A stretch of DNA of 64,000 bases from an uncultured virus (IMG/VR IMGVR_UViG_3300044646_002851) (IMGVR_UViG_3300044646_002851), one strand, 5' to 3'; positions 220-32,731 are shown, counted from the first letter of the stretch. The notes: generated from the letters alone by a model not told the origin. Made by a program: numbers and translations.

Positions 220-1314
220 TTACTTTTTTGAATTAAAACCTAAATGTTTCATATCATGATTTACTCCAGAAAAAGCCAATTTTCTAGCAAGTTCCATATC
301 TTTTTTATCACCTTTGACCCATTGTTTGTACATCATATTCCATCTAGGATCTTTTATTTTTTGTGCCATATCTGTAATTGATGTGCCTTGTGGTAGTGGC
401 TTCCTATGCCTAGATTTATCGTATGCGTTTTTTATAAGATGATTTATAGTATTTGTAATTTCACCATCAGATAATGATTTCATTACTTCTTGATTGTATT
501 CAATTTGCTTTATTACTTGACTACAAATCAACTCAGTTTCAGAACTTCCATGCACATCAACTCCTTCATCAGAAGCCATTCCCGAAAATGCTTTTTTACG
601 ATCAACTGGAACAATTTTAAGTTTTGCAATAAAATTATCAACAACTCTTTTTATATCTGGACCTGCATTTTGATCCTTGTAATGAAGCACTAATGTGTCT
701 CTGTGGCTTTTAGCAACATCCTCATCGTTTGCAATTTTAAAAGAAAAATACACATCTTTCAATTTTGTTGTTTTATCAAACTCCGAAGGAAGGAATTTAA
801 CGCTGTCGATAAAACTTTTATGTGAATTTGGTTCAATTGTCCAAAACCATTTGTGAGATTGAAATTGTGTGTCTTTAGGAATCGTTTCGATTTTCCAAAA
901 TTGAGTCCATCCTTTAAATTCTTGTGCTTTCCAAGAAACTTGGTTGTGTAAGTTGACATAATTTATTGCATCTAATCGCATCTTTTTATAATCGCCATCA
1001 TTAAATTTGTCTTTTATTTTGACAGTGTCATAATCTTCTCTAGTTGTTATGTATTTGTACAAAGCGTCTTTTAGATCTTTGTTAAGTTCAGCGTATCTTT
1101 CTAATTTTTCATCTACATCAATACCCGCATCAATTTTATCTTTAACTTTGAACTGCCATTTCATTATATCTATGACTTCTTTTAAGTGATCAGATTTACT
1201 TTTATCTTCGAAATAATTTTCGTTTACTTTGCCTTCCAATATGTCGTAATATTGATTCTCTGTAATGAGACCAGACAAGTAAAGCATGTAATTCGGGTTA
1301 TTTTTATTGTACAT
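220..1314 (-). CDS. Hypothetical protein with the same N-terminal module; central region weakly HopA1/phosphothreonine-lyase-like
   Basis: Start moved to M14 (ATG 1314), which matches the start of the neighbouring gene; HKWFWTI...FSFKI...HRDTLVLHY pattern. Confidence 0.6.
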   Translation of the reverse strand: MYNKNNPNYMLYLSGLITENQYYDILEGKVNENYFEDKSKSDHLKEVIDIMKWQFKVKDKIDAGIDVDEKLERYAELNKDLKDALYKYITTREDYDTVKIKDKFNDGDYKKMRLDAINYVNLHNQVSWKAQEFKGWTQFWKIETIPKDTQFQSHKWFWTIEPNSHKSFIDSVKFLPSEFDKTTKLKDVYFSFKIANDEDVAKSHRDTLVLHYKDQNAGPDIKRVVDNFIAKLKIVPVDRKKAFSGMASDEGVDVHGSSETELICSQVIKQIEYNQEVMKSLSDGEITNTINHLIKNAYDKSRHRKPLPQGTSITDMAQKIKDPRWNMMYKQWVKGDKKDMELARKLAFSGVNHDMKHLGFNSKK

Positions 1315-2551
1315 TGAAGAAATTATCCTTTTCCATTCGATCAAGTTTATCACTTATATCTTTTCCTTTTAATCCAAAGTGTGCGACATCTGCACCAGAG
1401 TATTTAGGCTTATGTTCAAATAATCTCTTAGATTCATCCTCAAATCCGAAATGACTCATGAATGGTTCTATGGACTTATAAGGAACTCTCTTCATTTCTC
1501 TGGATATGTCATGAATTTTGTAGTCGTGGCTCATTGGATTCTTGAACATGTTATATGCTTTTAAAATTATGATCGCAGGAGTAAGAACATCATATTCGAA
1601 CTTGTACTGTATCAACATATCAGACAGTTTCTTATTGGGAGCTTCTTCACTGAGTATGTAAGCAATCATAGCAGGAAGATCGTTATTCATTTGATCCAGA
1701 GGTTCCAATTTTGAAATTTTTATTCTTTCTGGCATGATGTTGTGAATGAGATCCAATTCTTTTAAAGACTTGATAAAATTAGCTGGAGATTTACTTTGCT
1801 TCAAACCAGAAATAAATTCCTTGTTGATTCTTTCCTTGCTGACATTTTCTAAGTTCTTGAATTCGGCTATTGCCATTTTGGTCTTATCGTCAAGATGACT
1901 CATTATATTGTCATCATTGTATCTGTTAAAGAATCTAACCACACGCAAAACTCTAAGTTTGTCTTCGTAGAATCTCTGGAATGGATCTCCTACTACACTT
2001 GTGTGTTTGTTCTTTATGTCTTCGATACCTTTTCCGTGATTATAATCTCTTACTTTTTTGTTTATCGTATCATAGAACAAAGCATTGTAGTTCAAGTCTC
2101 TTCTTTTAGTATCTTCTTCTGGTGTCGCTCCAAATTCTGTTTTTTCTGGTATTCTTGAATTGCCAGAATATACTTCTTTTCTGAAGGTTGCTATTTCAAA
2201 TTCATCTTTCTTCTTTCCTTCCATGTCTTTGACAATGATGGAAAGTACTCCTTGGTCTATTCCCTTCTCGAATATTTCTAATTTAAATCTTCCATTGGCT
2301 ATGGTTGTATTGTGGATTATTTTTCTTGTTTCTTCTGGAAGTGCGTCTGTGGCTAGGTCGTAGTCGTTTATGTCTTTTTTCATGTCGTGGAAGTGATTAA
2401 AGAGATGATCCCTTACAGCACCACCGACTACATAGCAGGTTTTGCCATGTGCTTTCATGATGTGTGCTATTTCTTCTAGTTCCTCTGGAACTGACATGTG
2501 AGTGTCTATAGTTTCTAATTCTTCAGATATTAACCATTGTTTAAAGTTCAT
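1304..2551 (-). CDS. cca: Class II tRNA nucleotidyltransferase (CCA-adding enzyme), no HD domain
   Basis: YVVGGAVRD, DYDLAT, EIATFR, EDTKRRDLNYNAL, RFYEDKLRVLR, VSKERI motifs; N-terminus MNFKQWLISE. Confidence 0.9.
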   Translation of the reverse strand: MNFKQWLISEELETIDTHMSVPEELEEIAHIMKAHGKTCYVVGGAVRDHLFNHFHDMKKDINDYDLATDALPEETRKIIHNTTIANGRFKLEIFEKGIDQGVLSIIVKDMEGKKKDEFEIATFRKEVYSGNSRIPEKTEFGATPEEDTKRRDLNYNALFYDTINKKVRDYNHGKGIEDIKNKHTSVVGDPFQRFYEDKLRVLRVVRFFNRYNDDNIMSHLDDKTKMAIAEFKNLENVSKERINKEFISGLKQSKSPANFIKSLKELDLIHNIMPERIKISKLEPLDQMNNDLPAMIAYILSEEAPNKKLSDMLIQYKFEYDVLTPAIIILKAYNMFKNPMSHDYKIHDISREMKRVPYKSIEPFMSHFGFEDESKRLFEHKPKYSGADVAHFGLKGKDISDKLDRMEKDNFFNVQ

Positions 2552-14386: not shown

Positions 14387-14527
14387 CTTGTCTTGAGCCT
14401 TTCAATAAGCTAAATTAATATCCCTTACTTAGACTGTCTTGCAGTTTGTTGTTTGGGGATGATTTATCTTACCAATTTTTGTACAAATTTAAATTTGGTG
14501 GTACAATAAAATCGAAAGGAATCAAAA

Positions 14528-15736
14528 ATGCCAAAGACTAGAGATAAAAAGGTAAAGATAGAGAAGTTAGAGAAGGATTACCTCGGCAAATTTCCATCTA
14601 TCTACTTTGTGGATAAGGATTTAGCTCCACAAAGTTTTGAGAAAGAAATTAAAAAAGCATATCGAAAATTATTGTTTGGGTTCCAAACTAATAAGAAAAA
14701 TTTAAAAGAAATGTTTTTAATTGAATTCATGAAAAAAATTAAAAAACTTAACATTGACACCGTTCTTGGTGACAACATGAAGGAAATTATAGATTGGGTA
14801 AGCGGGAATGAAATGTTTTTAAGAGCATTTGATATTCAACACGCTCCTGACATGAAAAACAGAAAGCTAGCTCTATTTTTGCATGCAGCAGGAAAGCTAA
14901 GATCATTTTTCATAAAAATGATATGCGATCAAATAAATCTTAGCAAATATTTACCAGATTACTTTGCTAGTTTCGGATTATACAGGAATGGATTTTTTAT
15001 TCGATTTCATCAAGTTCAAAAAGAAAAGACTGAGGGCGGAACAATATACCGACATCATAAAAATTTAACTGTTGATGGTGAGAGTTATGAATTGTGGTTT
15101 TCTAAACATGCTATAGATCGTGTTTTGCAAAGAGTTGGAGAAGAAATTGAATCTCCAATTATAATATTGGGAGAATTTATTTCTCATGCTCCATTTACAT
15201 TCAATGGCTTTGGTGCTATTCAGCACTTGCTTTGTTGCTACATGCCATCACCATTCGGAAAAAAAAGCGAAGTATATGAAGCTGCTGGTATAAACATTAG
15301 TGTGCTTGATGGGCATACTAAAAGCGAAAACTTAATGAAGTATTTGTATTTTCCATTTGTCGTCAAGGGAAATAAAATCATTTGTAAAAGTGCTTTATTG
15401 CCGGGATTTTCTGGTACACCAGAGTATCAAATGAAAGAAGAGTTGTTGAGGGGCTTGCCAGAATCAGAAAGAAGCATGGATATTTATTCAAACGAATTAG
15501 AAGATTCAGACGAACCAGAAGACGATCTAACGGCTTCTCTTAATTCGGAAGATGCTTTAAGGCTTTGTTTGAAGAAGTTTTATGATAGGAACAATGAAAA
15601 TCAAAATGTCATTTCCAGTGAATTTTGTTACATATCTTTAATGTTTCACAAGCATGGTATGCCTCAATATTTTTTGGGTGATTTTGATGGATATCAACCA
15701 ATTATAACTTGTACTAAACAACTTAAACAAAATTAA
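14528..15736 (+). CDS. Hypothetical protein
   Basis: 402-aa ORF with GAAGG SD; FSKHAIDRVLQR; no family recognised. Confidence 0.6.
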   Translation: MPKTRDKKVKIEKLEKDYLGKFPSIYFVDKDLAPQSFEKEIKKAYRKLLFGFQTNKKNLKEMFLIEFMKKIKKLNIDTVLGDNMKEIIDWVSGNEMFLRAFDIQHAPDMKNRKLALFLHAAGKLRSFFIKMICDQINLSKYLPDYFASFGLYRNGFFIRFHQVQKEKTEGGTIYRHHKNLTVDGESYELWFSKHAIDRVLQRVGEEIESPIIILGEFISHAPFTFNGFGAIQHLLCCYMPSPFGKKSEVYEAAGINISVLDGHTKSENLMKYLYFPFVVKGNKIICKSALLPGFSGTPEYQMKEELLRGLPESERSMDIYSNELEDSDEPEDDLTASLNSEDALRLCLKKFYDRNNENQNVISSEFCYISLMFHKHGMPQYFLGDFDGYQPIITCTKQLKQN

Positions 15737-16739
15737 AAATTAATTGAGAGCAAAGTTCTTCTGTGCTTTTCATCCATGATTTTTGAGCCATTTTATTTTT
15801 GTATGTTTCTTCATTTTTATCTGCATGATCAAATGCAATTGATATTGCATGATTTAGATCATCATCAACAAAAACCGTATTGTCATCAGCCAAATCTAAT
15901 GCTCCATTAATTGGATAACCCACAACAGGAGTTCCACAAGCCAATGCTTCTAACATTACTAAACCATAAGTATCAGTCTTAGATGGAAACACAAACACAT
16001 CTGCATTTTGATAATATTCTACAAGTTCTTCTGGTTTTAATTTGCCCATAAAACTAACAGTTGGATACTTTTTTTTAAGTTCTTGTAGTTGAGGTCCATC
16101 ACCAATAGCGATTTTTATATCTGGTAAATTTAATTTGCAAAAATCATCTATGTTTTTTTCTCTAGATATTCTACCGACATAGAGTGCGGTTTTTATGTTT
16201 GATTCTTTCTTTTTTTTGACACAAAATAATTGTGTATCTACACCTTTAGGACATATAGCCTTTTCTTTTTTAATCCAATCCAATTTGTTTGCCAAATCTT
16301 CTGTGCAACAGAAAACCTTTTCAGATTTTTCATGAAACCATTTGAAGTATTTTCTTGTGATCCAAATTGGAACTAGGAGATGTTTTTGAATATATTCTGG
16401 AAACATAGTCAAATAACTTGTAGTGAATTTTATATCATTGCGAATACAGAATTTTCTGGCTTGTATCCCTAAAGTGCCTTCTGTCATGATGTGAACAGCA
16501 AATGATTTATCAAAATATTCTTGTTTAAAATCCAATCCATATGCAAGTTTAACATCATTGGAAAATGGACAATTGAAATAAGGCAAGCCATCTGGAGTTA
16601 TACAAATCAAATCATATCCAAGTTCTGGAATATGTTTGATATAGTTTTTCATGGTTGTGGAAACACCATTTGTGTCAGGTGGACATGTGTCACTCACTAG
16701 AATAATTGTCTTGGTATTTTTCAACGGTAATTTCTCCAT
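15723..16739 (-). CDS. GT4 glycosyltransferase, Agt-like (glycosyl-diacylglycerol synthase)
   Basis: SDTCPPDTNGVSTT, HIMTEGTLG, FTTSYLTMFPEY, LYVGRISREKN, FPSKTDTYGLVMLEALACGTPV. Confidence 0.85.
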   Translation of the reverse strand: MEKLPLKNTKTIILVSDTCPPDTNGVSTTMKNYIKHIPELGYDLICITPDGLPYFNCPFSNDVKLAYGLDFKQEYFDKSFAVHIMTEGTLGIQARKFCIRNDIKFTTSYLTMFPEYIQKHLLVPIWITRKYFKWFHEKSEKVFCCTEDLANKLDWIKKEKAICPKGVDTQLFCVKKKKESNIKTALYVGRISREKNIDDFCKLNLPDIKIAIGDGPQLQELKKKYPTVSFMGKLKPEELVEYYQNADVFVFPSKTDTYGLVMLEALACGTPVVGYPINGALDLADDNTVFVDDDLNHAISIAFDHADKNEETYKNKMAQKSWMKSTEELCSQLIFNFV

Positions 16740-17367
16740 TTTTAATTTTTAAATAAGTTGGTGGTTTTTCGGTCCAGCAACCAGAGTTGAAATATTGATC
16801 CATGTAATTTTCTGGCATATGTGTATGTCCAACACATATAGCATCGCAACCAACTTTTTCTCTATATTTCAATGCTTTAAGTTTAACCTTCTCAATACAC
16901 TTCAAAAAAGTTTTACTACTCATTTTAGCCAATCTAGCCCAATAGAATTCTGAATCAATTTTTTGTAATAGATGATAGGCATAATCGGCTATTCTTGTCA
17001 AGATAGGATAAGAAGTTATAAAATCATCAAATTTATCTCCATGAGTGCAAATTATTTTCTTTTCACCAGAATTGAAAATATATTCTTCATGCACAGTAGA
17101 TCCAAGTAAATGACTTATTATTTCGCACGGACCATCATGATTACCATGAATCCAAATGACTTCAATATCTTGAGATAAATTTCTAATCTTAGATAGAATT
17201 TTAAAATGACTACTTTTCAATCTTCTGAAATCCCAAGAATCAAAAACATCACCATTTAAAATTAATTTTTTAGTATCATGAAGATTATCTAAAAAGTGAT
17301 TCAAAGCCTTTGATTGGCAAACATCACTTCCAAGATGTATATCTGAAATTACTATGGCATCATGCAT
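16690..17367 (-). CDS. Calcineurin-like metallophosphoesterase, PlcP/LpxH2-like
   Basis: ISDIHLG, LNGDVFDSW, GNHD, HGDKFD, GHTH, YFNSGCWTE; overlaps the GT4 start. Confidence 0.8.
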   Translation of the reverse strand: MHDAIVISDIHLGSDVCQSKALNHFLDNLHDTKKLILNGDVFDSWDFRRLKSSHFKILSKIRNLSQDIEVIWIHGNHDGPCEIISHLLGSTVHEEYIFNSGEKKIICTHGDKFDDFITSYPILTRIADYAYHLLQKIDSEFYWARLAKMSSKTFLKCIEKVKLKALKYREKVGCDAICVGHTHMPENYMDQYFNSGCWTEKPPTYLKIKNGEITVEKYQDNYSSE

Positions 17368-17442
17368 GAACTATTTAAGATGTTAATTTTTTATATGAGG
17401 TGAATTTTAAAAAAATTCATCTTATCTTCATCTTTTTCGTAT

Positions 17443-18171
17443 TTATTTTTTGCTATTTTTTCTAATGTTATCAAGTCTTTGGAGATGCTTTTCTTTTGAT
17501 ATGTGAATATGCTGTAAAGTATCATCAACTTCTTTGTGAGCATTTTGCTTGCTTACTTGTTGTTTTTGTTTAAATGTTTTAATTTCTGGATGGAAATCCG
17601 CCTCTTTGATTCTTCCTGTTCTATCCATGATGATGAATGTTACAAGTAATTTTGCTTTACTATCATTCTTTATTTTGCCATCTTGATCGAAAATTATCTC
17701 ATAAAGTTTTCTTGGAAATCCACTTCCGACCTGCAAAGACATATGATTGTCTATAACGAAAAATAGAACTTCCTTTTCCTCTGATGTCAAAGCATTAAAG
17801 AATTCTTTTAGATTACCACTGAGTTGATCAATCATTGGCAAGTAATGATTAGAATTTTCATGACCATGAGATGTTATCTTGCCTGTTTCCTTATCGATTT
17901 TACTTGCAGAGGCTTTGCCAATGTCATGAAACCATGCCGCCAATTTCAAAATTCTTATTTGACTAGAAGTTAAATTCATATCTAAATTTGAAAATATAGA
18001 GTCTGGCTTTGATTTTTCTTTTGAAACAAAATCAAGAGCCAATGGCAATCTGCTTCTTACCATGCGTGTATGTGTGAAAACATCACCTTCCGAATGGTGT
18101 TTTGGGTTTTGCGGTATAGGTTTTAAAATCTGTCGCAAAGATGCTTCATTTATAAAATCTTTAAAATTCAT
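17443..18171 (-). CDS. Stand-alone HD-domain phosphohydrolase (CCA-enzyme-type HD) with CTS-like N-terminus
   Basis: MNFKDFINE; PQNPKHHSEGDVFTHT; AAWFHDIGK; GHE; NHM; D-x-x-GR. Confidence 0.85.
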   Translation of the reverse strand: MNFKDFINEASLRQILKPIPQNPKHHSEGDVFTHTRMVRSRLPLALDFVSKEKSKPDSIFSNLDMNLTSSQIRILKLAAWFHDIGKASASKIDKETGKITSHGHENSNHYLPMIDQLSGNLKEFFNALTSEEKEVLFFVIDNHMSLQVGSGFPRKLYEIIFDQDGKIKNDSKAKLLVTFIIMDRTGRIKEADFHPEIKTFKQKQQVSKQNAHKEVDDTLQHIHISKEKHLQRLDNIRKNSKK

Positions 18172-18223
18172 GCCTTATATATATTGTAAATTTTAATTTT
18201 TTCAAGACTACTATTTTAATTGC

Positions 18224-18403
18224 ATGACTGTTTTCAACCATATAAATGATGTTCAAAAAGTTTTCGAAAATTTAGACATCGATTGGGTCAAAATCACACC
18301 TGAAGAAAAAATAGTCAATTTAAAAATGGCAATTGAAAATATCAATATTCTTTTGTCCATTTGTCACGAAGAATCAAATATCCTTACAAACTATAATTCG
18401 TAA
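18224..18403 (+). CDS. Small hypothetical protein (59 aa)
   Basis: Hand translation MTVFNHINDVQKVFENLDIDWVKITPEEK...TNYNS fills the gap between genes. Confidence 0.55.
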   Translation: MTVFNHINDVQKVFENLDIDWVKITPEEKIVNLKMAIENINILLSICHEESNILTNYNS

Positions 18404-19586
18404 TTGTATTACTTGAATCGCCACCAAATTCACTGAAATTAACAAACACTGCTGGTATATGAATCCTTTTTCTTAATGATTTTTTCTCTCCATATGGTTG
18501 CATTCTCCAATGCCCTCTTCTCCAATGTGGTTTAACATCTCTTCCAGTAGATTCAGAATCTATTATTCTAATGCTCTTCTTTTCATATAATTTGATTTTT
18601 TGATTCAATTCATAAATGATTGGTCTTGTCAAAGCATTTAATTCATTGATCTCTTTATATTTCCCATTATTCTTTTTAAGTAACTTTTCACGATAAGGGT
18701 CAGCAATAGAATTGCATCCAAAATCGCAAGCAAGCATACAAAGATTACACATCGTTCTAAAAATTTGTTTGCATAGAACAAATTCACCAGCTGTCAAATC
18801 CAGTTCAACATCAGAAGATTTTTCAGACATATCTCGATCAAAACAATCATCTAAACTATCGCCTTCTGTCAATTTAACAATTGCGGTAATATCAATGCCA
18901 GAACTCATTGTAATAGCCATGCTCAACATTTTATTTTCTGAACAATGATGAATTACAGCAAAAGATGGTTTGTGATAAATAGTGTTTCGTTCTGGAAGAC
19001 CTAATTTTTTCCGGTCATCATTATTTGATTTTAAATACTGATGAATATCGGTATCATCAAATGGAACCAATCTATTCGATATATAATCAGAAGAAAATTC
19101 GACAATAACAACTGGAAATGGTTGTTCGTATTCTTCGCTAGGAACAGTCAACAATGTGTTTTCTAATGCTTCGCATTTTTCTGTCGATAAAGAAAAAAGC
19201 TTTGGTCCTTCTGAGAAAATTTTCATTCTCAAAAAACAACTCAACAATGAAGAAACACCATTTTGTGCTGCTATATTCAGATATAACACAGCCATATAAA
19301 TGGATGACAATTCAGATTTATCTTGATTTGAAATGGTTGGATCGAATATTTCAAATCTTCTTAGTTCTGCGTTGTATTTTAACATACCCCACTTCTGCAA
19401 AACAATAAACATTTTCTTTATGTCTGCTGGTATTTGATTGGCATAACTACGAAAATTATCAAAACCTGTACCTTTATCTAAGTCTTCAAAAAGTTTTAAC
19501 ATATGTTTGTTAAGGTCATCTTGGAATTCTTTAGATGATCCGAGGCTTGATTTCCAATTGTTATCGTCATTATTTGCAGTATTCAT
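18384..19586 (-). CDS. Hypothetical phage protein with C-terminal HxRRGHWR motif
   Basis: KPHWRRGHWRMQPYG...IPAVFVN; AAGGAG SD. Confidence 0.7.
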   Translation of the reverse strand: MNTANNDDNNWKSSLGSSKEFQDDLNKHMLKLFEDLDKGTGFDNFRSYANQIPADIKKMFIVLQKWGMLKYNAELRRFEIFDPTISNQDKSELSSIYMAVLYLNIAAQNGVSSLLSCFLRMKIFSEGPKLFSLSTEKCEALENTLLTVPSEEYEQPFPVVIVEFSSDYISNRLVPFDDTDIHQYLKSNNDDRKKLGLPERNTIYHKPSFAVIHHCSENKMLSMAITMSSGIDITAIVKLTEGDSLDDCFDRDMSEKSSDVELDLTAGEFVLCKQIFRTMCNLCMLACDFGCNSIADPYREKLLKKNNGKYKEINELNALTRPIIYELNQKIKLYEKKSIRIIDSESTGRDVKPHWRRGHWRMQPYGEKKSLRKRIHIPAVFVNFSEFGGDSSNTITNYSL

Positions 19587-21815: not shown

Positions 21816-22133
21816 TTATATAAGACCTTCCATGATACAGTAAAGTGTTTTTTTGTTCAAAAATTTAGGATTTATGTGTTCTGGAATTTTTATATTACGA
21901 AAATAATATTCAATTTGACCATCTGCAGTAAGATGCAAACCATGCTTAAATCCATGACTATACCATGTTGCAGAATCTCTTGTGATAACTGCTGGTTCAT
22001 CATCAGAATGAAGTAAACCGTCTTCATCATATATTTTTTTGGGAGATCCAAAAGGATATTCGATAAAGCATGGTGTTATGCGATCATTCCAACCTTCTAA
22101 CATTTCATCCATGAATTTTCTACCTTTCAACAA
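21816..22133 (-). CDS. Hypothetical phage protein
   Basis: GLLHSDDEPAV...WYSHGFKH beta-hairpin repeat motif common in viruses; start may be M8 (22112). Confidence 0.6.
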   Translation of the reverse strand: MLKGRKFMDEMLEGWNDRITPCFIEYPFGSPKKIYDEDGLLHSDDEPAVITRDSATWYSHGFKHGLHLTADGQIEYYFRNIKIPEHINPKFLNKKTLYCIMEGLI

Positions 22134-22147
22134 TTAGATCGAGAATA

Positions 22148-22432
22148 TTAAACCAAAAAATCAGAACTTGCAATAGAAGAAATTAATGCAAATTTCTTTT
22201 TATATTCATCGTTCTGTAACTTCAAATTTTCATGAAGTTCTTTATGTTGTTCAAACTCTTTAGATAATATTTTTTGTTTTTGTTTTTCTTCTTCAATATT
22301 CTTGTGCAACATTTCATTATCATCTGCAGCAAAAGAAAGCTCTTTCTCTAACTCGCTAATTCTAAATTGTAATGATTCAAATAAAGTCAAATCATCACTC
22401 TTTTTCATAAAATTCTTGATTAATGTGAACAT
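22148..22432 (-). CDS. Coiled-coil hypothetical protein
   Basis: Start moved to ATG 22432 behind GGAGGTG SD; heptad-rich. Confidence 0.6.
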   Translation of the reverse strand: MFTLIKNFMKKSDDLTLFESLQFRISELEKELSFAADDNEMLHKNIEEEKQKQKILSKEFEQHKELHENLKLQNDEYKKKFALISSIASSDFLV

Positions 22433-22598
22433 ATTCACCTCCATTGTTAATGGAGTGTGTTTCTTTATTTTTCTTACGAAAATCATAAGGACAATGCTTG
22501 CAGTCACTCTTGCAACATTTTCCTCTTTTGAGAAGAAATGCTTCGGTCAACACCATTAGACCAGACGCATTATAATAAAAGTCTAAACCTTCTTGCAT
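22395..22598 (-). CDS. Small Cys-rich protein (DUF5522-like)
   Basis: DFYY...G.MVLTEAFLLKRGKCCKSDCKHCPY. Confidence 0.75.
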   Translation of the reverse strand: MQEGLDFYYNASGLMVLTEAFLLKRGKCCKSDCKHCPYDFRKKNKETHSINNGGEYVHINQEFYEKE

Positions 22599-22614
22599 TA
22601 TTTATATATTTCCA

Positions 22615-22643
22615 TTGCAACAAAAAAAAATATCTATTATTAT
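22615..22643 (+). promoter_or_regulatory. Sigma70-type promoter
   Basis: TTGCAA (22615-22620), 17-nt spacer, TATTAT (22638-22643), upstream of the 22682-tRNA-dam unit. Confidence 0.5.
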
Positions 22644-22681
22644 GTGTGAAGTTGTAAGCAAGTTTCAAAGGGAATTAACTG

Positions 22682-22966
22682 ATGACATTGATCCATTGTG
22701 CATTTTGTTTGTTACTAGCAACTTTGGCGATTCCATTTGCAGTCGCCACTTTAAATGCTTATCATGGTTTAGAAAAATTTTCTCTTGTTGATTTGTTACA
22801 ACATGGATTGATCATATTAATTGTTTCATTTCCAATCATCAATATCACTGCAGCTTTTGAAGTTTACTTTCATGAAACAAATATATTTTCATATGTCTCT
22901 GGAATATGTAGCTCCATATTTATTTCGACATACTTTGCTGACATTAATTTAAATTCAAAACTATAA
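22682..22966 (+). CDS. Membrane protein (about 3 TM)
   Basis: Three hydrophobic segments in 94 aa. Confidence 0.65.
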   Translation: MTLIHCAFCLLLATLAIPFAVATLNAYHGLEKFSLVDLLQHGLIILIVSFPIINITAAFEVYFHETNIFSYVSGICSSIFISTYFADINLNSKL

Positions 22967-22969
22967 AAT

Positions 22970-23045
22970 GCGAGGATAGTGTAAAGTCAGCACAGGATTT
23001 AAACCAAAGTCTTAGTGGCGGTTAAATTCCGACCTCCTCGCTCCA
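22970..23045 (+). tRNA. Non-canonical tRNA-Gly-like gene (ACC in an 8-nt loop), CCA encoded
   Basis: Acceptor GCGAGGA/TCCTCGC + U73 + CCA; D-stem GTGT/GCAC; anticodon stem GGATT/AGTCT with loop TAAACCAA; T-arm GGCGG-TTAAATT-CCG(A)CC. Confidence 0.75.
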
Positions 23046-23066
23046 AATATAAAATAGGATATCAAT

Positions 23067-23927
23067 GTGTCGCTAATACGATATCCGGGTGGCAAAAATA
23101 AAATAAAGAATAAGATTTTAGATTCAATTATAAATCTAGAATCTTTTCATTCTATGGAATATAGAGAGCCATTTTTTGGCGGAGGAAGCATAGGTCTTGC
23201 TCTTATTGAACATGGAATAAAAAACATATGGATAAATGATCGTGATCCAGCAATTGCTTGTCTTTGGACAAGTGTATTGATAGAACCAAATTCTCTCATC
23301 AAAAAAATACAATCATACAAACCAACTGTAGAATCATTCTTTTCAATACGAGAAGAATTATTGGCAATAGATGAGATTCCAAAAGAAACATCAAACATCA
23401 TTGACATTGGATTCAAAAAATTTGTAATTCATCAAATTTCTTTTTCTGGTCTTGGAACTAAATCGGGCGGACCACTTGGCGGTGTCGAACAAAAATCTGA
23501 ATATAAAGTAGATTGTCGCTGGTCTCCTATTCACTTTTGCAAGAAGATAGAAAAATTTCATTCACTTTTCAAAAAAGTTAAAGTTACTCATGATTGTTGT
23601 ACAAATTTTGACTTTGAAGTATTATTGAAAAATAAGTCAAAGAACTATTATTCTTACATAGATCCACCATACTTCCACAAAGGAAATGATCTATATCAAT
23701 TTGGGTTTTCTTCTTATGATCACTTAAGATTAAGTAAGTGCTTGAAATCAAGTAATGCCAAATGGATTCTTTCTTATGATGACTGCAAAGAAATAAGAAG
23801 TCTATATGAATGGGCTTGTGTTCAAGAGATTGATGTGAATTACACTATCGCAAGTCAAAAAGACAATGTGACAGGTAAAAAATCATCTTCTAAGAAAGGC
23901 GAATTGATAATAAGGAGGTGCGTTTAA
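23067..23927 (+). CDS. D12-class (Dam-like) N6-adenine DNA methyltransferase
   Basis: RYPGGK, EPFFGGGS, WIND, YIDPPY, WILSYDD. Confidence 0.9.
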   Translation: MSLIRYPGGKNKIKNKILDSIINLESFHSMEYREPFFGGGSIGLALIEHGIKNIWINDRDPAIACLWTSVLIEPNSLIKKIQSYKPTVESFFSIREELLAIDEIPKETSNIIDIGFKKFVIHQISFSGLGTKSGGPLGGVEQKSEYKVDCRWSPIHFCKKIEKFHSLFKKVKVTHDCCTNFDFEVLLKNKSKNYYSYIDPPYFHKGNDLYQFGFSSYDHLRLSKCLKSSNAKWILSYDDCKEIRSLYEWACVQEIDVNYTIASQKDNVTGKKSSSKKGELIIRRCV

Positions 23928-24553
23928 TGGAAGGCATGTATTATCCAAACTCAGGTCATATTGAAACTGTTAAAGAATGGTTCAATGGTCATGAAATAGA
24001 AGTTCACAAAATAAAAGTAGATGGTAAAAATTATGAGGCTTGTGATGAAGCTTCAAAAAGCTGGTGGACAAAAAATAAAAAGGGCGGAGAATGGAATCCG
24101 GGTTTGTTGAATAGTCCATACGATCCAAGGAAAACAGAAAGAGTTGGAATTCTTGGAGAAATGGCTTTTGGAATCATGACTGGTTTGCCAGTCAATCTAG
24201 CATTTAAAGAATTTGGAAACACTACAGATTTTGATGTTCTGAAATACACATTAGATGTAAAAACTGCAGCCAAAAACTATGGAGCAGCTTTAGTTAGATG
24301 CGTTGATGAGTATGGTAGAATTATGCCATTAAACAATGACATATATTCATTTGCATATTTAGAATTCGAAGACAGAGAAGCAAAAGAAGCTATTATTGCT
24401 CATGTTGGATATCAAACGAAAAGTGTATTAAGCTCTAGACCGATTGTTCCAGCAAGAAAGGGATCTCATAAAAATTATGAAATCCCTTATCATGAATTAA
24501 AAACAATGTCTATGTTTATGTCTGTTTTTCAAAAATACCAATGTATTAGCTGA
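23918..24553 (+). CDS. Putative PD-(D/E)xK nuclease
   Basis: GILGEMAF helix, then TDFD...LDVKT; translationally coupled to the methyltransferase. Confidence 0.6.
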   Translation: MRLMEGMYYPNSGHIETVKEWFNGHEIEVHKIKVDGKNYEACDEASKSWWTKNKKGGEWNPGLLNSPYDPRKTERVGILGEMAFGIMTGLPVNLAFKEFGNTTDFDVLKYTLDVKTAAKNYGAALVRCVDEYGRIMPLNNDIYSFAYLEFEDREAKEAIIAHVGYQTKSVLSSRPIVPARKGSHKNYEIPYHELKTMSMFMSVFQKYQCIS

Positions 24554-24617
24554 CTTTAATCAACAGTTATTTTTTTTTTTCATAAAATAAAATACATTTA
24601 ATTGACTTATATAAATT

Positions 24618-25250
24618 ATGAACATAAATATTGAACCATTTTATTGTTACATAAAAAAAGAACATCTTTTTGGATATGAAAGTAATTTCGAAGAACATGA
24701 ACTGGTATGTGTATTCGCAGCCAGAAGTGTTGCAAATAGAGCATTGTTATTTCATTGCATGACAGAATCTGGAATGCAAAGAGCAAATGTTCCTATTTCC
24801 GCTTTAGTTCATAAGACTGATGCTCCCAAAATAGATTTAGATTATCTTCAACTTTGGAATTGTTTTGGCAATGAGATTAATGTTTGCAAATTCGATTATC
24901 TTGTTAGTTGGAGATGTCAAATTGCCATGAAAGACAAGTCTATGCATTGGGCGACTTATATGATGACATTTGATTGGGAAAATAACAATTTTAGCTTAAC
25001 TCCAAATGATTATAAAAATGCACATTTGTTAAAATTAGATAATGGGTGTTTTGCATTGCAGCCAAATAATAGAATATTTTGGAAAGATTCAAATTTTGTA
25101 ACAAAACCACTTGATCCTAAATCTACTCCAAAATATAAAGTTGATAAAGAAATTTTTGTATGTGAAAAAAGTGATCGATGGACAAGTGAAGATACAGATT
25201 GTTTTTATTACGACATTATAAAAGCAGATGAGAATTCGCAGTCAATTTAG
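24618..25250 (+). CDS. Conserved phage hypothetical protein
   Basis: LQLWNCF...YMMTFDW...KNAHLLKLDNGCFALQPNNRIFW pattern. Confidence 0.7.
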   Translation: MNINIEPFYCYIKKEHLFGYESNFEEHELVCVFAARSVANRALLFHCMTESGMQRANVPISALVHKTDAPKIDLDYLQLWNCFGNEINVCKFDYLVSWRCQIAMKDKSMHWATYMMTFDWENNNFSLTPNDYKNAHLLKLDNGCFALQPNNRIFWKDSNFVTKPLDPKSTPKYKVDKEIFVCEKSDRWTSEDTDCFYYDIIKADENSQSI

Positions 25251-25904: not shown

Positions 25905-26651
25905 TTATTTAGGCAAAGAAAACAAATTATTTACAAGTTCCTTTGTGTTTAAATCAGGATGAGCAATTCCTTCAGATCTTTTATCGACACGATGATGAGG
26001 AAAATTTCTATTTATAAAGGAGGATTCATCGGCATTGTCATATCGTAGATGTGCCGTCAATCTAACTTTATCAGAATTATTACATCCTGATCTATGAATC
26101 AAAAATGTGTTAAATATCAATATGTCTTCACGATCCATAACAACTGGAACAAACTTACTTTCATCGAAAGAAGATTCACTCAAAACTGTATCATCCTTTT
26201 GCTCTAAGTTACCAAATAAATGACTTCCGGGAATTACTTCTAAATATCCCATAGATTCATCTAGTTGAACTAAAGGTATCCAAACAGTAACTCCATCTAT
26301 ACTTCCTTGCATAGATGGCCAATCTTGATGTGCTGGTACTTTCCAATACATGTCATTCTTGGCGAGATTTTTATGGCTATAAGAAAGCAATGGTCTTGTG
26401 TTAATGACTGGATTTTTTAAACCCAAGTCTTTAACAATATTGACAATTGATGGTAGAGTTATAAGTTTATTCACAGAAATCAAATATTGGCTTATATTTG
26501 CTGCTCCTAAAAAACGATTAAAATCATTTTGATAAATTTCAAACAAATCAATTTTAAACAAATTGTGAATATCATTTGCGATTTCATTTAAAAGCTTTTT
26601 TTTGATAGCTTTTTTTACTAATAAGTACCCATTTTTCTGGTAAGATGTCAT
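25905..26651 (-). CDS. PhyH-family 2OG-Fe(II) dioxygenase
   Basis: PAHQDW, TVWIPL, LEVIPGSH, LIHRSGCN...RL. Confidence 0.9.
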   Translation of the reverse strand: MTSYQKNGYLLVKKAIKKKLLNEIANDIHNLFKIDLFEIYQNDFNRFLGAANISQYLISVNKLITLPSIVNIVKDLGLKNPVINTRPLLSYSHKNLAKNDMYWKVPAHQDWPSMQGSIDGVTVWIPLVQLDESMGYLEVIPGSHLFGNLEQKDDTVLSESSFDESKFVPVVMDREDILIFNTFLIHRSGCNNSDKVRLTAHLRYDNADESSFINRNFPHHRVDKRSEGIAHPDLNTKELVNNLFSLPK

Positions 26652-26686
26652 TTTGGCTCCTGATGAATAACCTAAATGAGTCTACG

Positions 26687-27268
26687 ATGATGAGAAATAT
26701 ATGTGTAATAGGTGGCACTTCGAATATCGGAGAGGTGATTTGCAAATCGCTTTCTGATTCTTACAATGTAGATAAAACCAATTCTTTGACATGTGATGTT
26801 CGTGATGAAAAAAAAGTTATTGATTACTTTCAAGGAATTGATTCGCTTTATGGTCTTGTTTATTGTTCTGCTTTAAAAAGCGAATATGACGCATTAGATG
26901 ATCCAAAAGAACTAGAAAGACTTCTTTCTGTCAATTTATTTGGTGCAATTTATTGTTTACAACAAGCAGCAAAAAAAATAAAAATAGGAAAAATAGTTGT
27001 CATTGGAAGTGTTGATGGAACATTTGGTAATTATAAAAAAACTATGTACGCTGTTTCGAAAGCTGCGCTGCATGAATACACAAGATGTTTTGCCTCTCAA
27101 GTGAAAGATAGAATTGAAGCAATTTGTCTTGTTCCCGGCACAATATCTAGCGATAATGACAAACAGGCAATTGCCAATTTCATAAAGTGCTTCATGGACA
27201 ACTCAATAACTAATATACACGCACAACTAATTAGAATGGACAAAGGAAACCATACATTCCCATTATGA
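26687..27268 (+). CDS. SDR-family oxidoreductase
   Basis: VIGGTSNIG, VNLFG, S...YAVSK; start moved to M15. Confidence 0.88.
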   Translation: MMRNICVIGGTSNIGEVICKSLSDSYNVDKTNSLTCDVRDEKKVIDYFQGIDSLYGLVYCSALKSEYDALDDPKELERLLSVNLFGAIYCLQQAAKKIKIGKIVVIGSVDGTFGNYKKTMYAVSKAALHEYTRCFASQVKDRIEAICLVPGTISSDNDKQAIANFIKCFMDNSITNIHAQLIRMDKGNHTFPL

Positions 27269-28049: not shown

Positions 28050-28835
28050 ATGCTTCACAATCATGAAGTGCCAAACTATATGCTCATAGGTGTTCGTAAG
28101 GGGGCGACAAGTTGGATTTGGAAACAGTTAGATCAACATCCAGATATCGAAACTCATCCCAAAAAAGAAATACATTTTTTCAATAAATTTTACCATAAAG
28201 GAATTGCTTGGTATAAAAAACAATTTAAATGGAAAAAAAAAGTAATTATAGATACCACACCAGACTATTTCGAAGAAACTTGTGCAGAAAGAATAAAAAC
28301 CCATTTTCCGAAAATTAAAATGATGGTTTCTTTAAGAAATCCAATAGAAAGAGCTTTTTCTCATTTCAAATTCGCCAAATTTTTAAACGCAACAAAATCA
28401 AACTTTAAAATACTGTGGAAAAAAGACTGGCTACAAATACGAACAAGAGGTTTGTATGATAAGCATCTTTATTGTTTTTATGATAGATTCCCAAAACAAA
28501 ATTTGTTGATCATGTTTAATGATGATATAAAAATAAATAGTGAAAATTTTTCAAATAAAATGTATGACTATATGAATGTCACAAGAATAACAAGTGAATT
28601 TAGAGATATGCGTTGGATGCCCGGAGAAAATACTTGTTGGACAAAAATAGAAGGTCAAAAAAAAGATTATGAAAAAAGATATGAAAAATATAAAGAATAC
28701 AATAAAAAAGAAATTTTAAACAATGATGATTTCAAAATGATGTGTGATTATTACGAAGAATCAATTAAAAATCTAGAAAAGATTGCAAACAGAGATTTTT
28801 CTAATTGGTTAAAAATAGAAAATATAGAATGCTAA
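28050..28835 (+). CDS. PAPS-dependent sulfotransferase
   Basis: IGVRKGATSW (5'-PSB), KEIHFF, LRNPIERAFSH (3'-PB). Confidence 0.9.
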   Translation: MLHNHEVPNYMLIGVRKGATSWIWKQLDQHPDIETHPKKEIHFFNKFYHKGIAWYKKQFKWKKKVIIDTTPDYFEETCAERIKTHFPKIKMMVSLRNPIERAFSHFKFAKFLNATKSNFKILWKKDWLQIRTRGLYDKHLYCFYDRFPKQNLLIMFNDDIKINSENFSNKMYDYMNVTRITSEFRDMRWMPGENTCWTKIEGQKKDYEKRYEKYKEYNKKEILNNDDFKMMCDYYEESIKNLEKIANRDFSNWLKIENIEC

Positions 28836-29647
28836 CCAAAAATTAATTTCATTCTATCGTATAAATCTTTGCAAACATGATCAGGATCATATTCCCATAG
28901 TTTTTTATTATAAACACCAGCATTAACAAATCCGTCAAATTCAATACTCTTAGCAGTCTTAGAAAATTTATACAAATCAATTTGACCATCTAATGGCATG
29001 ACTCTATTTCTGTCCATATGCATTTCTCTGTTAATATTTTTATCTGCGTCACTTATGTGCAAAACTGATATTTTATTTTTATCGTATCCCAAAAAATCGT
29101 CCGCTTCTCCTCCGCTTTTCCACAAATGATAAGAGTCAATAATCATAGTTCCTTCTGCATTTACATCATCAATAAATTTTTTACATTTTAAAAATGTATC
29201 AATCTGTTTTGTTTGACCCATAAATTCTATACTTGGCAAACATCCAATTGATTTTCCCAATTCTAAAAGTTCATTAAAATAATCTACACCTTGTTGCCAT
29301 GAACCAAAATGATTGCGATGACTAAAGGCTGGTGTTGCTATTATCCACTTTGCATTTATGGAAGCAGATAATTCCATTCTTCTTTTGCATTCATCAATAA
29401 TGTCTTCATGCTTATCAGAAACGCCCATTAACTCTCCATCATTTTCAAACCATCCTACGATTTGTTCGACTGCTGGTATCTGAATATTATGATCTTCACA
29501 ACATTTTACTATGTCTTTCGAATTTTTAAATTTCAATTCATCAATCCAAGGTTCAATAGCAACAAATTTATTTCTACTTGCAATTTTTATTTTTTCAAAA
29601 ATATCAATATCAAAAGAAAGCATAGCTGTATTAATACAAAATTTCAT
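28832..29647 (-). CDS. Sugar-phosphate isomerase/epimerase (xylose-isomerase-like TIM barrel)
   Basis: IEPW, SIEFMG, IDSYH, LHISD, RVMPLDGQID. Confidence 0.85.
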   Translation of the reverse strand: MKFCINTAMLSFDIDIFEKIKIASRNKFVAIEPWIDELKFKNSKDIVKCCEDHNIQIPAVEQIVGWFENDGELMGVSDKHEDIIDECKRRMELSASINAKWIIATPAFSHRNHFGSWQQGVDYFNELLELGKSIGCLPSIEFMGQTKQIDTFLKCKKFIDDVNAEGTMIIDSYHLWKSGGEADDFLGYDKNKISVLHISDADKNINREMHMDRNRVMPLDGQIDLYKFSKTAKSIEFDGFVNAGVYNKKLWEYDPDHVCKDLYDRMKLIFG

Positions 29648-30437: not shown

Positions 30438-31091
30438 TTATATTTTAACTTCGCTAATTTCTTTTGTTCTTTTCGCTGGAATACCCATATAAACACCCCC
30501 TTCTAAATCTATACTTTTAACCACGGAAGCACTTTGCCCAACTAATGTATTTGGTGCAATACTTATAGAATCACGAATTGTAGAACTAGATCCAATAAAA
30601 CAAAAATCTCCAATACTAATGTGTCCTGCAATATTGCAATTACTTGATATAAAAACATTATTACCTATTTTGCCATGATGACCAACATGAGTTAAAGACC
30701 AAATAATATTGTTGTCTCCAATTTCACAAAATGGTTGAATGTTAACATTTTCAAATATGAAACAATTTTTTCCTATTTTTGAATTGCTTACAGTAGCTGA
30801 ACTATGAATGTAAGTAATAAATTCATAACCTTTTTCTTTTATTTTATTACAAACATTAAATCGCAACTTATTCATTTCTGATGCATAAAGTGGTGCAAAA
30901 AATTGATGATTATCTTTTGGATATGAATTTTCTATTTCTTCAAAAGGAACGACTGGAAGTCCACAAAAGTTATTTTCTTTGATATAGGCTCCATCCAAAC
31001 AAAAAGCTACAACCTTATGGTCAGAATCATTTGTAAGATAATAATGAGCCAATTGAGACATATCACGATTTCCAAATATAACAACATTCAT
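30438..31091 (-). CDS. NeuD/PglD/VioB-family sugar acetyltransferase
   Basis: N-terminal Rossmann-like domain, hexapeptide repeats, HVGHH, YMGIPAK. Confidence 0.9.
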   Translation of the reverse strand: MNVVIFGNRDMSQLAHYYLTNDSDHKVVAFCLDGAYIKENNFCGLPVVPFEEIENSYPKDNHQFFAPLYASEMNKLRFNVCNKIKEKGYEFITYIHSSATVSNSKIGKNCFIFENVNIQPFCEIGDNNIIWSLTHVGHHGKIGNNVFISSNCNIAGHISIGDFCFIGSSSTIRDSISIAPNTLVGQSASVVKSIDLEGGVYMGIPAKRTKEISEVKI

Positions 31092-31101
31092 CTAAAGATC
31101 C

Positions 31102-32004
31102 TTATTCGGTCCACTTGCAATCTTCTGGATTAATACAGAGCCAATCAGAAACGACATCTAATTTTTCTTCAAATTCATTATAAGCCAAATTGCATTTTTT
31201 CAATTTCAACTTTCGAAATGATTCTGGCAAACTTTTTAAATTGTTTGAGTAAAGGCTAATTTGTTCTAAATTTTGAAGATCGCCAATATTTTCTGGTAAC
31301 TTGCATAATTTATTTTTATGAATTCTCAAAGCTTGAAGACTTTGCAAGGCACAAATACCATCTGGTAGATAACGCAATTTATTTGCAACTAAAGACAACC
31401 ATTTTAATTTTTTCCATTTGCAAATATCATCTGACAATTCAGTTATCTTACTCAAACCCCAAGAAAAGAATTCGATGTCTGGAAGTGAAAATATAAAATT
31501 TGGAATTTCTTGAATTTGATTCAAGTATAAATTTAAAAATTGTAACTTCTTACAACCAAAGATGGCATCGACATTAGTCAATTTGTTCTTATGAATCTTT
31601 AGAACTTTTAATTCTTTAAATTCAGATATCCAATCTGGAATAGATTCCAAATTGTTGACCCCTAAATTAAGATATGACAAATTACAAGATTTAATCCATT
31701 CTGGAACTTCACACATATAATTAGATGCAAGATCTAGATGTTCAATATTTGGCAAATCCATTTCTGGAACAAAACTCAATCTATTTTTTCTTAGATTCAA
31801 TGACTTCAAACTTTTCAATTTATTGACGAGATGTAATACATATTCTTTTTCAATTCTAGGGAGTGTTCTGAATGAACCAATAAAAGTTTCATCATTACTG
31901 GTAAAATCAGCTTTTATGCATCTGTCCATTTCAGTTGTGAATGTAGCAGATGGAGCATATCTTACGATTTCTTCAATGATGTCTAAATCAGACATGTATT
32001 CCAC
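31102..32004 (-). CDS. Leucine-rich-repeat protein
   Basis: About 9 LxxLxLxxNxLxxLP repeats. Confidence 0.9.
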   Translation of the reverse strand: MEYMSDLDIIEEIVRYAPSATFTTEMDRCIKADFTSNDETFIGSFRTLPRIEKEYVLHLVNKLKSLKSLNLRKNRLSFVPEMDLPNIEHLDLASNYMCEVPEWIKSCNLSYLNLGVNNLESIPDWISEFKELKVLKIHKNKLTNVDAIFGCKKLQFLNLYLNQIQEIPNFIFSLPDIEFFSWGLSKITELSDDICKWKKLKWLSLVANKLRYLPDGICALQSLQALRIHKNKLCKLPENIGDLQNLEQISLYSNNLKSLPESFRKLKLKKCNLAYNEFEEKLDVVSDWLCINPEDCKWTE

Positions 32005-32731
32005 CCTTTACCAACCATCTCTCTCCTAAAAATGCTGTTCTGCCATGAAGAAGTTCTTCGTCCTTGAAAAATAAAGCTTCGCCAAACTTAAGTTTTACAG
32101 ATTGACATAAATCTCCACCAACAATGTAAGATTCTAAGAAGTTGTGAAATTCATTTCTAATAGGAACATCATTGCACCTGTAATAATTCCATGTCAACTT
32201 ATTGTCTGACAAAATTGGTCGTGATTTGAAATCATCTCCCTTACTATGAATTACTTCTGTATTTTTAATTTTATTCAGCAGTTTTTTATCGTATATTTCA
32301 ATATATTTCTTTAATTCTTCAAGCAAAATAAAAGTTGTGCTGCCGCCATATAAAGATTCTTTCATGCAAAAGAAATATGTTGTGTTTGGAGCTTTAGACT
32401 CATAAGAACCATCGGTATGCAATGGTTGCCTAGTGTTGCTATAACTAAAGCTTTCGCTTTTTTTATTCGAAGGATATTTAATGTCGGTAAATAAACTACC
32501 TGTTTTATTTCCTTCTGAGTCTTCTTCCATAGGAGCAGGTTTTCCGATTCTTTTTGCACATTCCGACCAATAGTCAGAAATAGAAAATGATTCATCAGAA
32601 AAAATATAAGATAAAAGCATTCTGTTCGGCTTCACATGAATATATTTAACATCATCTTCAAGCAAAGCATCTTGAATATAATGTCCTGCAATAATTGGAT
32701 TCTCAGGAATTGCGATTTCGCAGTGCTTCAT
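31988..32731 (-). CDS. TauD/TfdA (CAS-like) 2OG-Fe(II) dioxygenase
   Basis: PLHTDGSY, GGSTTF, LLHGRTAF..RWL. Confidence 0.85.
   Translation of the reverse strand: MKHCEIAIPENPIIAGHYIQDALLEDDVKYIHVKPNRMLLSYIFSDESFSISDYWSECAKRIGKPAPMEEDSEGNKTGSLFTDIKYPSNKKSESFSYSNTRQPLHTDGSYESKAPNTTYFFCMKESLYGGSTTFILLEELKKYIEIYDKKLLNKIKNTEVIHSKGDDFKSRPILSDNKLTWNYYRCNDVPIRNEFHNFLESYIVGGDLCQSVKLKFGEALFFKDEELLHGRTAFLGERWLVKGGIHV

Follow-up and report, generated by a model that had tools for sequence, protein, structure and literature searches.

What would a phage gain from a tRNA that appears suited to charging with glycine and poorly suited to translation? This question is raised by a 76-nucleotide (nt) element at positions 22970-23045, plus strand, of a 64,000-nt stretch of DNA from an uncultured virus (IMG/VR IMGVR_UViG_3300044646_002851). 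The whole stretch, referred to here as the window, appears to be a fragment of the genome of a very large freshwater or lake bacteriophage. The initial annotation of the element described a tRNA-Gly-like RNA that had kept charging determinants and lost translation determinants in a non-random pattern, and suggested a non-ribosomal glycyl donor or a decoy. We favor, with a probability of about one half, the view that the element is a phage-encoded glycyl carrier held out of translation. Its parts are as follows, with base pairs given as bp.

22970..23045, plus strand: tRNA-Gly-like RNA gene, 76 nt (sequence, minimum free energy cloverleaf, Rfam tRNA, ARAGORN at 80%, covariation with the homologue L045)
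22970-22976 pairing with 23035-23041, plus strand: acceptor stem, perfect 7 bp, with G1:C72, C2:G71 and G3:C70
22979-22993, plus strand: D-arm, 4-bp stem GTGT/GCAC, D-loop AAAGTCA (7 nt)
22995-23012, plus strand: anticodon arm, 5-bp stem, 8-nt loop at 23000-23007 (TAAACCAA)
23013-23016, plus strand: variable region, 4 nt
23017-23034, plus strand: T-arm, 5-bp stem, loop TTAAATT at 23022-23028, 3' strand CCGACC with a bulged A at 23032
23042, plus strand: discriminator T (U73), followed by an encoded CCA at 23043-23045

The minimum free energy fold of the element was exactly the cloverleaf (-23.4 kcal/mol, z -3.35), with only 1 of 200 shuffled sequences folding as well. All 21 of its 21 stem pairs were standard pairs, and its G+C content was 47%, compared to ~30% for the window; this structure exceeds chance expectation. 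The acceptor stem, U73, CCA, the CC at positions 35-36, the anticodon loop of 8 nt, in which U33 is missing, and the bulged A of the T-stem could each be seen in the sequence as initially described. In the anticodon loop TAAACCAA, both U33 and U34 were replaced by A, followed by the CC and then AA. The D-loop had been described as lacking G18G19; it indeed had no GG pair, but it kept a single G, which was placed at G18 or at G19 according to the aligner. Our own covariance models, R1 and R2, found a single copy within the window, and the idea of an att site was rejected, as the element had no repeat elsewhere in the window.

Scoring with tRNA finders, which had been proposed as a check, placed the element below the usual cut-offs. 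ARAGORN at default settings reported no tRNA in the entire window, and with thresholds lowered to 80% it called the element a 'possible pseudogene' (score 87.9). There was no Rfam match for the element at gathering thresholds: the Rfam tRNA model (RF00005) scored it at 19.2 bits, below the gathering score of 29, and scored the copy in a close relative (L001) at 22.2 bits. The corresponding E-value of 0.14 refers to 301 nt searched against 4227 families, and by arithmetic would be ~0.007 for one family and the whole window. Compared to a canonical elongator tRNA-Gly, the element thus has the acceptor with U73 and both C35 and C36, and is without the 7-nt anticodon loop with U33, the regular 5-bp T-stem, TTC, G18G19 and a score above finder thresholds.

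To place the element among tRNAs, we used a pattern composed of its acceptor stem, U8 A9 G10, a TTCRA T-loop and U73. Among prokaryotes (one genome for each of 185,579 species), the pattern occurred at 27 places, all 27 of which were ARAGORN tRNAs; the 17 bacterial ones were all tRNA-Gly and the 10 archaeal ones all tRNA-Cys. In build the element agreed with the 17 tRNA-Gly genes, sharing their short D-loop of 7 nt and the NCCAA in the 3' part of the anticodon loop; it differed in that its anticodon loop and T-stem were each longer by one base. Together, this census and the alignment identify the element, as judged by sequence, as a tRNA-Gly derivative.

In viral contigs the same pattern was found at two places, one of which was L045:3001-3071. 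The acceptor stem and D-stem of L045 were identical to those of the element, and the same bulged A was present in the 3' strand of its T-stem. Its anticodon loop also had 8 nt (TATTCCAA), with an extra A before UUCC, and the first two and last four loop bases were alike in both. L045 is less altered than the element, because its D-loop still has GG and its anticodon loop UUCC. It folded as a cloverleaf (z -3.70), and a G+C-rich hairpin and a T run were seen by eye 3' of it. All five anticodon-stem pairs differed between L045 and the element on both sides with pairing kept, so that the covariation which the initial annotation proposed to look for in related phages was indeed found. An alignment of the window element, L001 and L045 had 52 of 76 columns invariant and 98.4% of cells paired; 4 of 500 shuffles reached the observed values, and with slid partners 40-56% were paired.

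A third lineage was represented by the annotated tRNA-Gly of Salinibacter phage B2_17 (L056:3106-3178; OR896349.1), whose T-arm was one loop base away from that of the element, bulged A included. This gene had a 7-nt anticodon loop with G33, a GG in the D-loop and a different, fully compensated acceptor stem. The shared derived T-arm, which comprises a 5' strand GGCG(G), a TTCAA loop and a bulged A directly before the acceptor strand, was present in the window, its close relatives L001 and L002, L045 and B2_17, and absent from two canonical phage tRNAs, L046 and L058. In a model-fitted alignment the bulge column was filled only in the window, L001, L045 and L056 and was empty in L046 and L058; another phage sequence, L049, was too poorly aligned at this column to judge. 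The element, L045 and B2_17 also had in common the absence of a normal U33 in a 7-nt loop together with retention of C35, C36 and A37. C35, C36 and U73 were kept in all three lineages, and the acceptor/T-arm helix was the best conserved part. The members thus form a small phage family in which, by comparison with known determinants, the positions read by glycyl-tRNA synthetase (GlyRS; G1:C72, C2:G71, G3:C70, U73, C35 and C36) appear kept and the features used by the ribosome and EF-Tu appear altered. That the two features expected to suit translation least are common to diverged, compensated lineages argues against random decay as their origin.

The D-arm was less informative. A D-arm pattern retrieved L045 again (as L048), phage tRNAs of the Trp, Gln, Pro and SeC-like types and the unannotated L049, and because these include ordinary phage tRNAs, this D-arm is a common phage tRNA type and not a family marker. 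L049:230-299 (plus strand) is an unannotated tRNA-like sequence of a viral contig, located within a phage tRNA array; it scored 26.8 bits with R2, combined the common phage D-arm with an irregular T-arm and was missed by ARAGORN. L046:2998-3073 (minus strand), also in a viral contig, looks like a regular tRNA, and its anticodon, CTA, is of the amber-suppressor type (ARAGORN label 'Pyl'). It shares its Gly-type acceptor stem, U73 and CCA with the element and adjoins a tRNA-Arg(tct). Searches of INPHARED by blastn with the element and with the B2_17 tRNA gave nothing useful.

Close relatives allowed the recent history of the element to be followed. Two metagenome contigs, L001 and L002, contained the same locus at ~96% identity to the window. 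Their flanks differed from each other by 1-6%, their elements were identical, and this shared sequence differed from the window element at two positions.

23009, plus strand: strain-specific G at position 40 (A in the relatives), so that U30:G40 here replaces U30:A40
23024, plus strand: strain-specific A at T-loop position 56 (the universal C56 in the relatives, whose T-loop is TTCAATT)

The window allele was identical over 22000-24000 in contigs of three lake metagenome runs, among which the source sample may be present. Because contigs from three runs were identical over 2 kilobases (kb), the allele is not an assembly error. The TTAAATT T-loop, which the initial annotation counted among the lost translation determinants, is thus real in the window, but what looked like loss of TTC is one recent C-to-A substitution of this strain rather than a trait of the family; on this comparison, the absent TTC is not considered a design feature of the element. 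An exact 25-mer with the TTAAATT allele had no match in viral contigs, and a pattern built from the loops only found nothing. If the element were a decaying tRNA pseudogene, relatives might be expected to carry a canonical tRNA-Gly at this locus. None was found there in the close relatives, as L001 and L002 carry the same non-canonical gene; neither a canonical tRNA in relatives nor unpaired stem changes, the marks of a tRNA pseudogene, were observed.

More distant loci were less useful. L003 was syntenic and ended inside the open reading frame (ORF) just ahead of the element site, L004 and L005 were without the neighbourhood of the element, and R1 had no match in L004, G001 or G002. The methyltransferase encoded next to the element had relatives in L006 and L007 (~50% identity), neither of which had the element upstream. 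The L007 record contained an ordinary tRNA array ~10 kb away, with 11 matches over the Rfam tRNA cut-off. This record (G004), a huge-phage fragment of 73 kb rated 17% complete, has its array at 14064-18986, where the 11 matches are accompanied by four sub-threshold ones (26.2, 23.9, 15 and 9.6 bits).

A hint of function came from the neighbours of the homologues. Beside the L045 element is a 208-amino-acid (aa) Mom-family gene (PF25680, E 1.2e-28; phrog_1384, E 2.7e-43; PDB 8bv8, 'Methylcarbamoylase mom', E 2.6e-7). A tblastn search with the L045 protein identified Mom-like genes in 91 INPHARED records. We examined nine loci, L045 and 8 of the 91 records.

L045, viral contig: tRNA-Gly-like gene, convergent with the Mom gene and overlapping its 3' end
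L056, Salinibacter phage B2_17: non-canonical tRNA-Gly, same strand, starting 33 nt past a Mom-like gene that is annotated as 'hypothetical protein'
L058, Microbacterium phage Pickles13: canonical tRNA-Gly(ccc), opposite strand, 33 nt after a Mom-like gene
L057, Arthrobacter phage BarretLemon (NC_031252.1): unannotated tRNA-Gly(UCC)-like gene at 3095-3164, overlapping the 3' end of Mom-like gp71
L055 and L059-L062 (phiEf11, Polaribacter, SerPounce, Geobacillus and Vibrio K460): no tRNA-like gene seen beside Mom

A tRNA-Gly or tRNA-Gly-like gene was located no more than 35 nt from Mom in four of these nine loci. In BarretLemon the Mom stop codon is inside the D-loop, which is without GG, and the tRNA-like sequence has a GCG acceptor start, U73 and the T-loop TTCAATT. 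In the five negative loci, ARAGORN at 80% was applied to the interval between 60 nt upstream and 320 nt downstream of the Mom end, and R2 to the whole locus. Default ARAGORN missed the genes of the window, L045, B2_17 and BarretLemon, the last of which is also unannotated. In the tblastn results, 22 records of Arthrobacter phages had the Mom-like gene found in BarretLemon.

According to Silva et al. (Nat Commun 2026, PMC13219725), Mom of phage Mu takes glycine from Gly-tRNA-Gly and attaches it to the N6 position of adenine in double-stranded DNA, and the product rearranges to carbamoylmethyl-adenine; where this modification comes from had not been known before. All three Escherichia coli tRNA-Gly isoacceptors were reported there to work, and glycine on tRNA-Ala was not used. 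Among the results of full-text literature searches, only this paper and its preprint combined Mom with tRNA-Gly. We found no description there of adjacent Mom and tRNA-Gly genes, on which the main text of PMC13219725 is silent.

These observations suggest how such an RNA might be used. Co-transcription with the adjacent genes would be followed by trimming of the RNA as far as its encoded CCA, and host GlyRS would charge it with glycine; because it would be poorly used in translation, it would supply a tRNA-dependent transferase with activated glycine reserved for that use. In L045 and B2_17 this transferase would most likely be the adjacent Mom-family GNAT enzyme, and the glycine that Mom places on N6-adenine would become carbamoylmethyl-adenine, protecting phage DNA from restriction. 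For the phage of the window we infer charging, exclusion from translation and donor use likewise, with a partner that would be encoded elsewhere in a genome of ~450 kb or would belong to an unrecognised family. A fuller version, which we hold tentatively and at somewhat less than even odds, is that a translation-insulated carrier, with altered U33 context and bulged T-stem, charged by GlyRS and ignored by EF-Tu and the ribosome, feeds Mom-type DNA hypermodification, that the element is a working member of this system, and that the bulged-A T-arm serves both as a transferase handle and in EF-Tu exclusion. The step from non-random loss to a non-ribosomal glycyl donor, as initially suggested, has gained support in that the odd features recur in covarying homologues beside Mom, an enzyme that uses Gly-tRNA-Gly (PMC13219725, main text), but the 64-kb window contained neither Mom nor another recognisable enzyme using aminoacyl-tRNA.

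Several observations weigh against a working carrier. First, the partner was not seen. Unlike L045 and B2_17, the element is not beside a Mom-family (PF25680) gene: Pfam scans of 65 window proteins gave no Mom match, tblastn with the L045 Mom protein against the window had a best E-value of 0.77, and a Mom hidden Markov model (HMM), built from nine family members that themselves score E 1e-57 or better, reached at best E 1.6 on 110 window frames of at least 90 aa. Comparison of the ORFs neighbouring the element with Mom by hhalign gave probabilities of no more than 3.6%, and the immediate neighbours are instead a Dam-like methyltransferase and a nuclease-like protein. Second, the family is small, as further scans of viral contigs and the genome scan found no more members than the three lineages. 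Third, five of the nine Mom loci had no tRNA-like gene beside Mom, and the eight INPHARED records were chosen for host diversity, not at random. Fourth, a private donor is unnecessary in principle, since all host isoacceptors were reported to serve Mu Mom (PMC13219725, main text). Fifth, among close relatives the element varied in 2 of 76 columns and the region in 115 of 3163, a comparison with no power to detect selection. Finally, the element departs more strongly than its relatives from a working tRNA, with AA for U33/U34, one D-loop G where L045 and B2_17 have GG, and C56 lost in this strain, and this drift fits decay after loss of the partner. The same three changes would fit either a carrier freed of translational needs or a relic in early decay. 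As to the partner, a location elsewhere is compatible with its absence here, because only a small part of the genome is visible: the nearest viral record (G001, 23 kb) was rated 5% complete and a distant relative of 84 kb 19% complete, ratings from which a genome of ~450 kb follows, and the 64-kb window represents ~1/7 of it.

A serious rival, although less probable than a working carrier, is that the element is an orphaned relic: a Mom-linked tRNA-Gly carrier in a lineage that has lost or replaced Mom, so that the RNA is functionless and slowly decaying. Such a history would account for the absence of Mom from the window, for the element being the most degenerate of the three members in its anticodon loop and D-loop, for the further changes of C56 to A and A40 to G in the window lineage, both mildly destabilising, and for the fact that all detectors score it under threshold. 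It is harder to reconcile with complete pairing of the 21 stem pairs and a 47% G+C element in a 30% G+C genome, with GlyRS identity positions and a CCA that are all intact, and with a visible portion of the genome small enough for the partner to be elsewhere. That the flanks of L001 and L002 have diverged yet their elements are identical is a weak argument in the same direction.

Considerably less probable is a role of the tRNA shape itself, without glycine, as an RNase P or RNase Z site, a protective mRNA end or a decoy for a tRNA-targeting factor. The element is separated by 3 nt from the ORF before it and by 21 nt from the one after it, all on one strand, and nothing strongly resembling a promoter or terminator is located between these two ORFs, the second of which is the methyltransferase gene. 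This arrangement would suit such a role, as would the strong conservation of the acceptor/T-arm helix, the part that such enzymes read. However, transcript settings differ within the family, as L045 is convergent with and overlaps Mom and the B2_17 gene follows Mom on the same strand, and retention of C35, C36 and U73 in all three lineages, as well as the recurring Mom neighbourhood, would be left unexplained.

A working decoder appears very improbable. Frameshift-suppressor tRNAs with 8-nt anticodon loops exist, and a tRNA-Gly reading a four-base codon or shifting frame could be imagined from the loop of the element and L045 (UA + NNCC + AA), which recurs with the same length and the same first two and last four bases. 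However, on a four-base reading there is no U33, and the T-stem bulge is located at the site where EF-Tu contacts tRNA. Because the B2_17 loop has 7 nt, with G33, it is not the length of the loop that is conserved. Genes that would require decoding of this kind were neither sought nor seen. Finally, chance resemblance of an intergenic G+C-rich hairpin cluster, which would agree with sub-threshold scores in all detectors, is very unlikely in view of the cloverleaf z-score of -3.35, the exact acceptor stem in 17 bacterial tRNA-Gly genes and the compensated stems in distant homologues.

The proposed glycyl carrier may be compared with known systems. One precedent consists of the staphylococcal non-proteinogenic tRNA-Gly species NP1-NP3, which, according to PMC7826273, are glycyl donors for FmhB/FemA/FemB in peptidoglycan synthesis. 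They are described there as chromosomal, confined to the staphylococcal lineage and the only dedicated non-translational donors detected so far, with TGC or TGT replacing TTC and with weak T-stem pairs A49-U65, U50-A64 and A51-U63. As in those species, the GlyRS identity set (G1-C72, the second acceptor pair, U73, C35 and C36) is kept in the element, D and T regions are altered, and service to a GNAT-type aminoacyl-transferase outside translation is proposed. In contrast, the element is phage-encoded, has TTA (TTC in its relatives) rather than TGC/TGT, a G-C-rich T-stem (G-C, G-C, C-G) with a bulged A, and an 8-nt loop without U33. The staphylococcal analogy drawn initially therefore does not hold for the T-loop or for the T-stem, which has no weak A-U pairs, nor for the presence of a Fem gene, as no Fem family was among the Pfam matches of the 65 window proteins.

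Mu Mom is a known case of Gly-tRNA-Gly use in phage DNA modification, and the L045 and B2_17 members of the present family are within 35 nt of Mom-family genes. Its donor is any host tRNA-Gly isoacceptor, a phage-encoded donor not being described in the main text of PMC13219725, and the window is without a Mom gene. The Pickles13 tRNA-Gly(ccc) resembles the element in being phage-borne, with a Gly-type acceptor and U73, and the family in its location beside a Mom-like gene. It differs from the element in being canonical, with a 7-nt loop with U33, a regular 5-bp T-stem and an ARAGORN score of 113.9 at relaxed thresholds, whereas the element and L045 are missed by default ARAGORN and are below the Rfam cut-off.

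Most ORFs of the window had no family match. Among the genes that could be recognised were those for a tRNA nucleotidyltransferase, several DNA methyltransferases, an SNF2 helicase and a protein weakly similar to sigma-70, as well as a cluster for sugar modification. Of 61 window genes, 26 are preceded by Shine-Dalgarno-like motifs; on the basis of these motifs and of PHROG matches in the window, a giant-virus origin was rejected. All sampled words of 22000-24000 were contained in 19 lake or freshwater DNA runs, possibly including the source sample, and contigs in the lake metagenome runs reached 95 kb. The metatranscriptome run X20 contained 10% of the words, and its contigs covered 22000-22342 and one poor 36-nt piece, none informative on the element. 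Genes of interest are given below, with predicted local distance difference test scores as pLDDT.

1304..2551, minus strand: phage tRNA nucleotidyltransferase of the CCA-adding or poly(A) polymerase family (PF01743, E 4.4e-24; phrog_2244, E 5e-40)
22682..22966, plus strand: 94-aa ORF with no Pfam, PHROG, NCBIfam or PADLOC match, hydrophobic by eye
23067..23927, plus strand: D12-class (Dam-like) N6-adenine DNA methyltransferase (PF02086, E 7.7e-21; phrog_56, E 2.7e-42; PADLOC PD-Lambda-5_B, E 7.1e-62)
23918..24553, plus strand: 211-aa protein, 10-nt overlap with the methyltransferase gene, 382 relatives, AlphaFold pLDDT 91.2
33082-33708, minus strand: WbqC-like protein (PF08889, E 1.4e-50), ~10 kb from the element, with neighbours at 30438-34346

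The tRNA nucleotidyltransferase, whose NCBIfam matches were all under curated cut-offs, provides context only: with it, the phage may be able to maintain tRNA 3' ends. The stop codon of the 94-aa ORF is 3 nt 5' of the element; in L003 the homologue of this ORF begins at the truncated end. The methyltransferase gene starts 21 nt 3' of the element on the same strand. The 211-aa protein is probably a restriction-endonuclease-like nuclease, as suggested by its structural model: the top Foldseek rows were restriction endonucleases, none of them significant (best E 0.16). An acidic-residue/lysine nuclease motif was suggested by eye in its alignment. The possibility that this protein is a hidden Mom or other GNAT enzyme was rejected, given no family match, weak matches of restriction-endonuclease type and an hhalign probability of 0.1% against the Mom family. 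Together, the PD-Lambda-5_B-like methyltransferase and the translationally coupled 211-aa protein (23067-24553, plus strand) look like a phage-borne restriction-modification pair.

The WbqC-like protein was considered as a candidate tRNA-dependent transferase because WbqC genes occur, in the account of PMC10404621, in tRNA-ProX operons with GT4 and LmbE genes. It adjoins a DegT aminotransferase and a hexapeptide acyltransferase. The best Foldseek match of its model (pLDDT 94.6) was bacillithiol synthase BshC (E 9.9e-3, probability 0.89), followed by pantothenate synthetase and folds of the TyrRS type. These weak matches suggest a ligase that uses ATP, not a transferase of the GNAT type, and the candidate was dropped as an aminoacyl-tRNA-using partner. 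The model hints at a ligase joining an amino acid to an amino-sugar; the WbqC, GT4 and LmbE set presumably resembles the BshA/BshB/BshC enzymes.

Other features of the region were also observed. A 98-aa protein at 21816-22112 (minus strand) with no family match was 66-77% identical in the very distant relatives L003, L004 and L005, where the adjoining 595-aa protein was only ~28-50% identical; for a small protein of these huge phages, the 98-aa protein is by this measure unusually well conserved. Searches with the 98-aa protein found one distant viral contig, L005, which is without the element, and nothing in prokaryote genomes, and the 595-aa protein had no relative in viral contigs. The locus is a mosaic between strains with 96-98% identity, in which two or three window genes (26645-27268 and 28050-29647) have no counterpart in L002, and ~1.1 kb of L002 (5757-6858) is located between two genes that are only 65 nt apart in the window (24553-24618).

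tRNA finders and annotation overlook tRNA-Gly look-alikes of the type described here. If the proposed carrier function is correct, phages would themselves supply the carrier of activated glycine with which their DNA is modified against restriction, which would link dedicated non-translational tRNA donors with Mom DNA modification, and a sub-threshold tRNA-Gly gene beside a GNAT gene would be a simple genomic marker for tRNA-dependent modification systems. For the phage represented by this window, either the full genome would hold a Mom-like partner, or the element would be the fossil of one.

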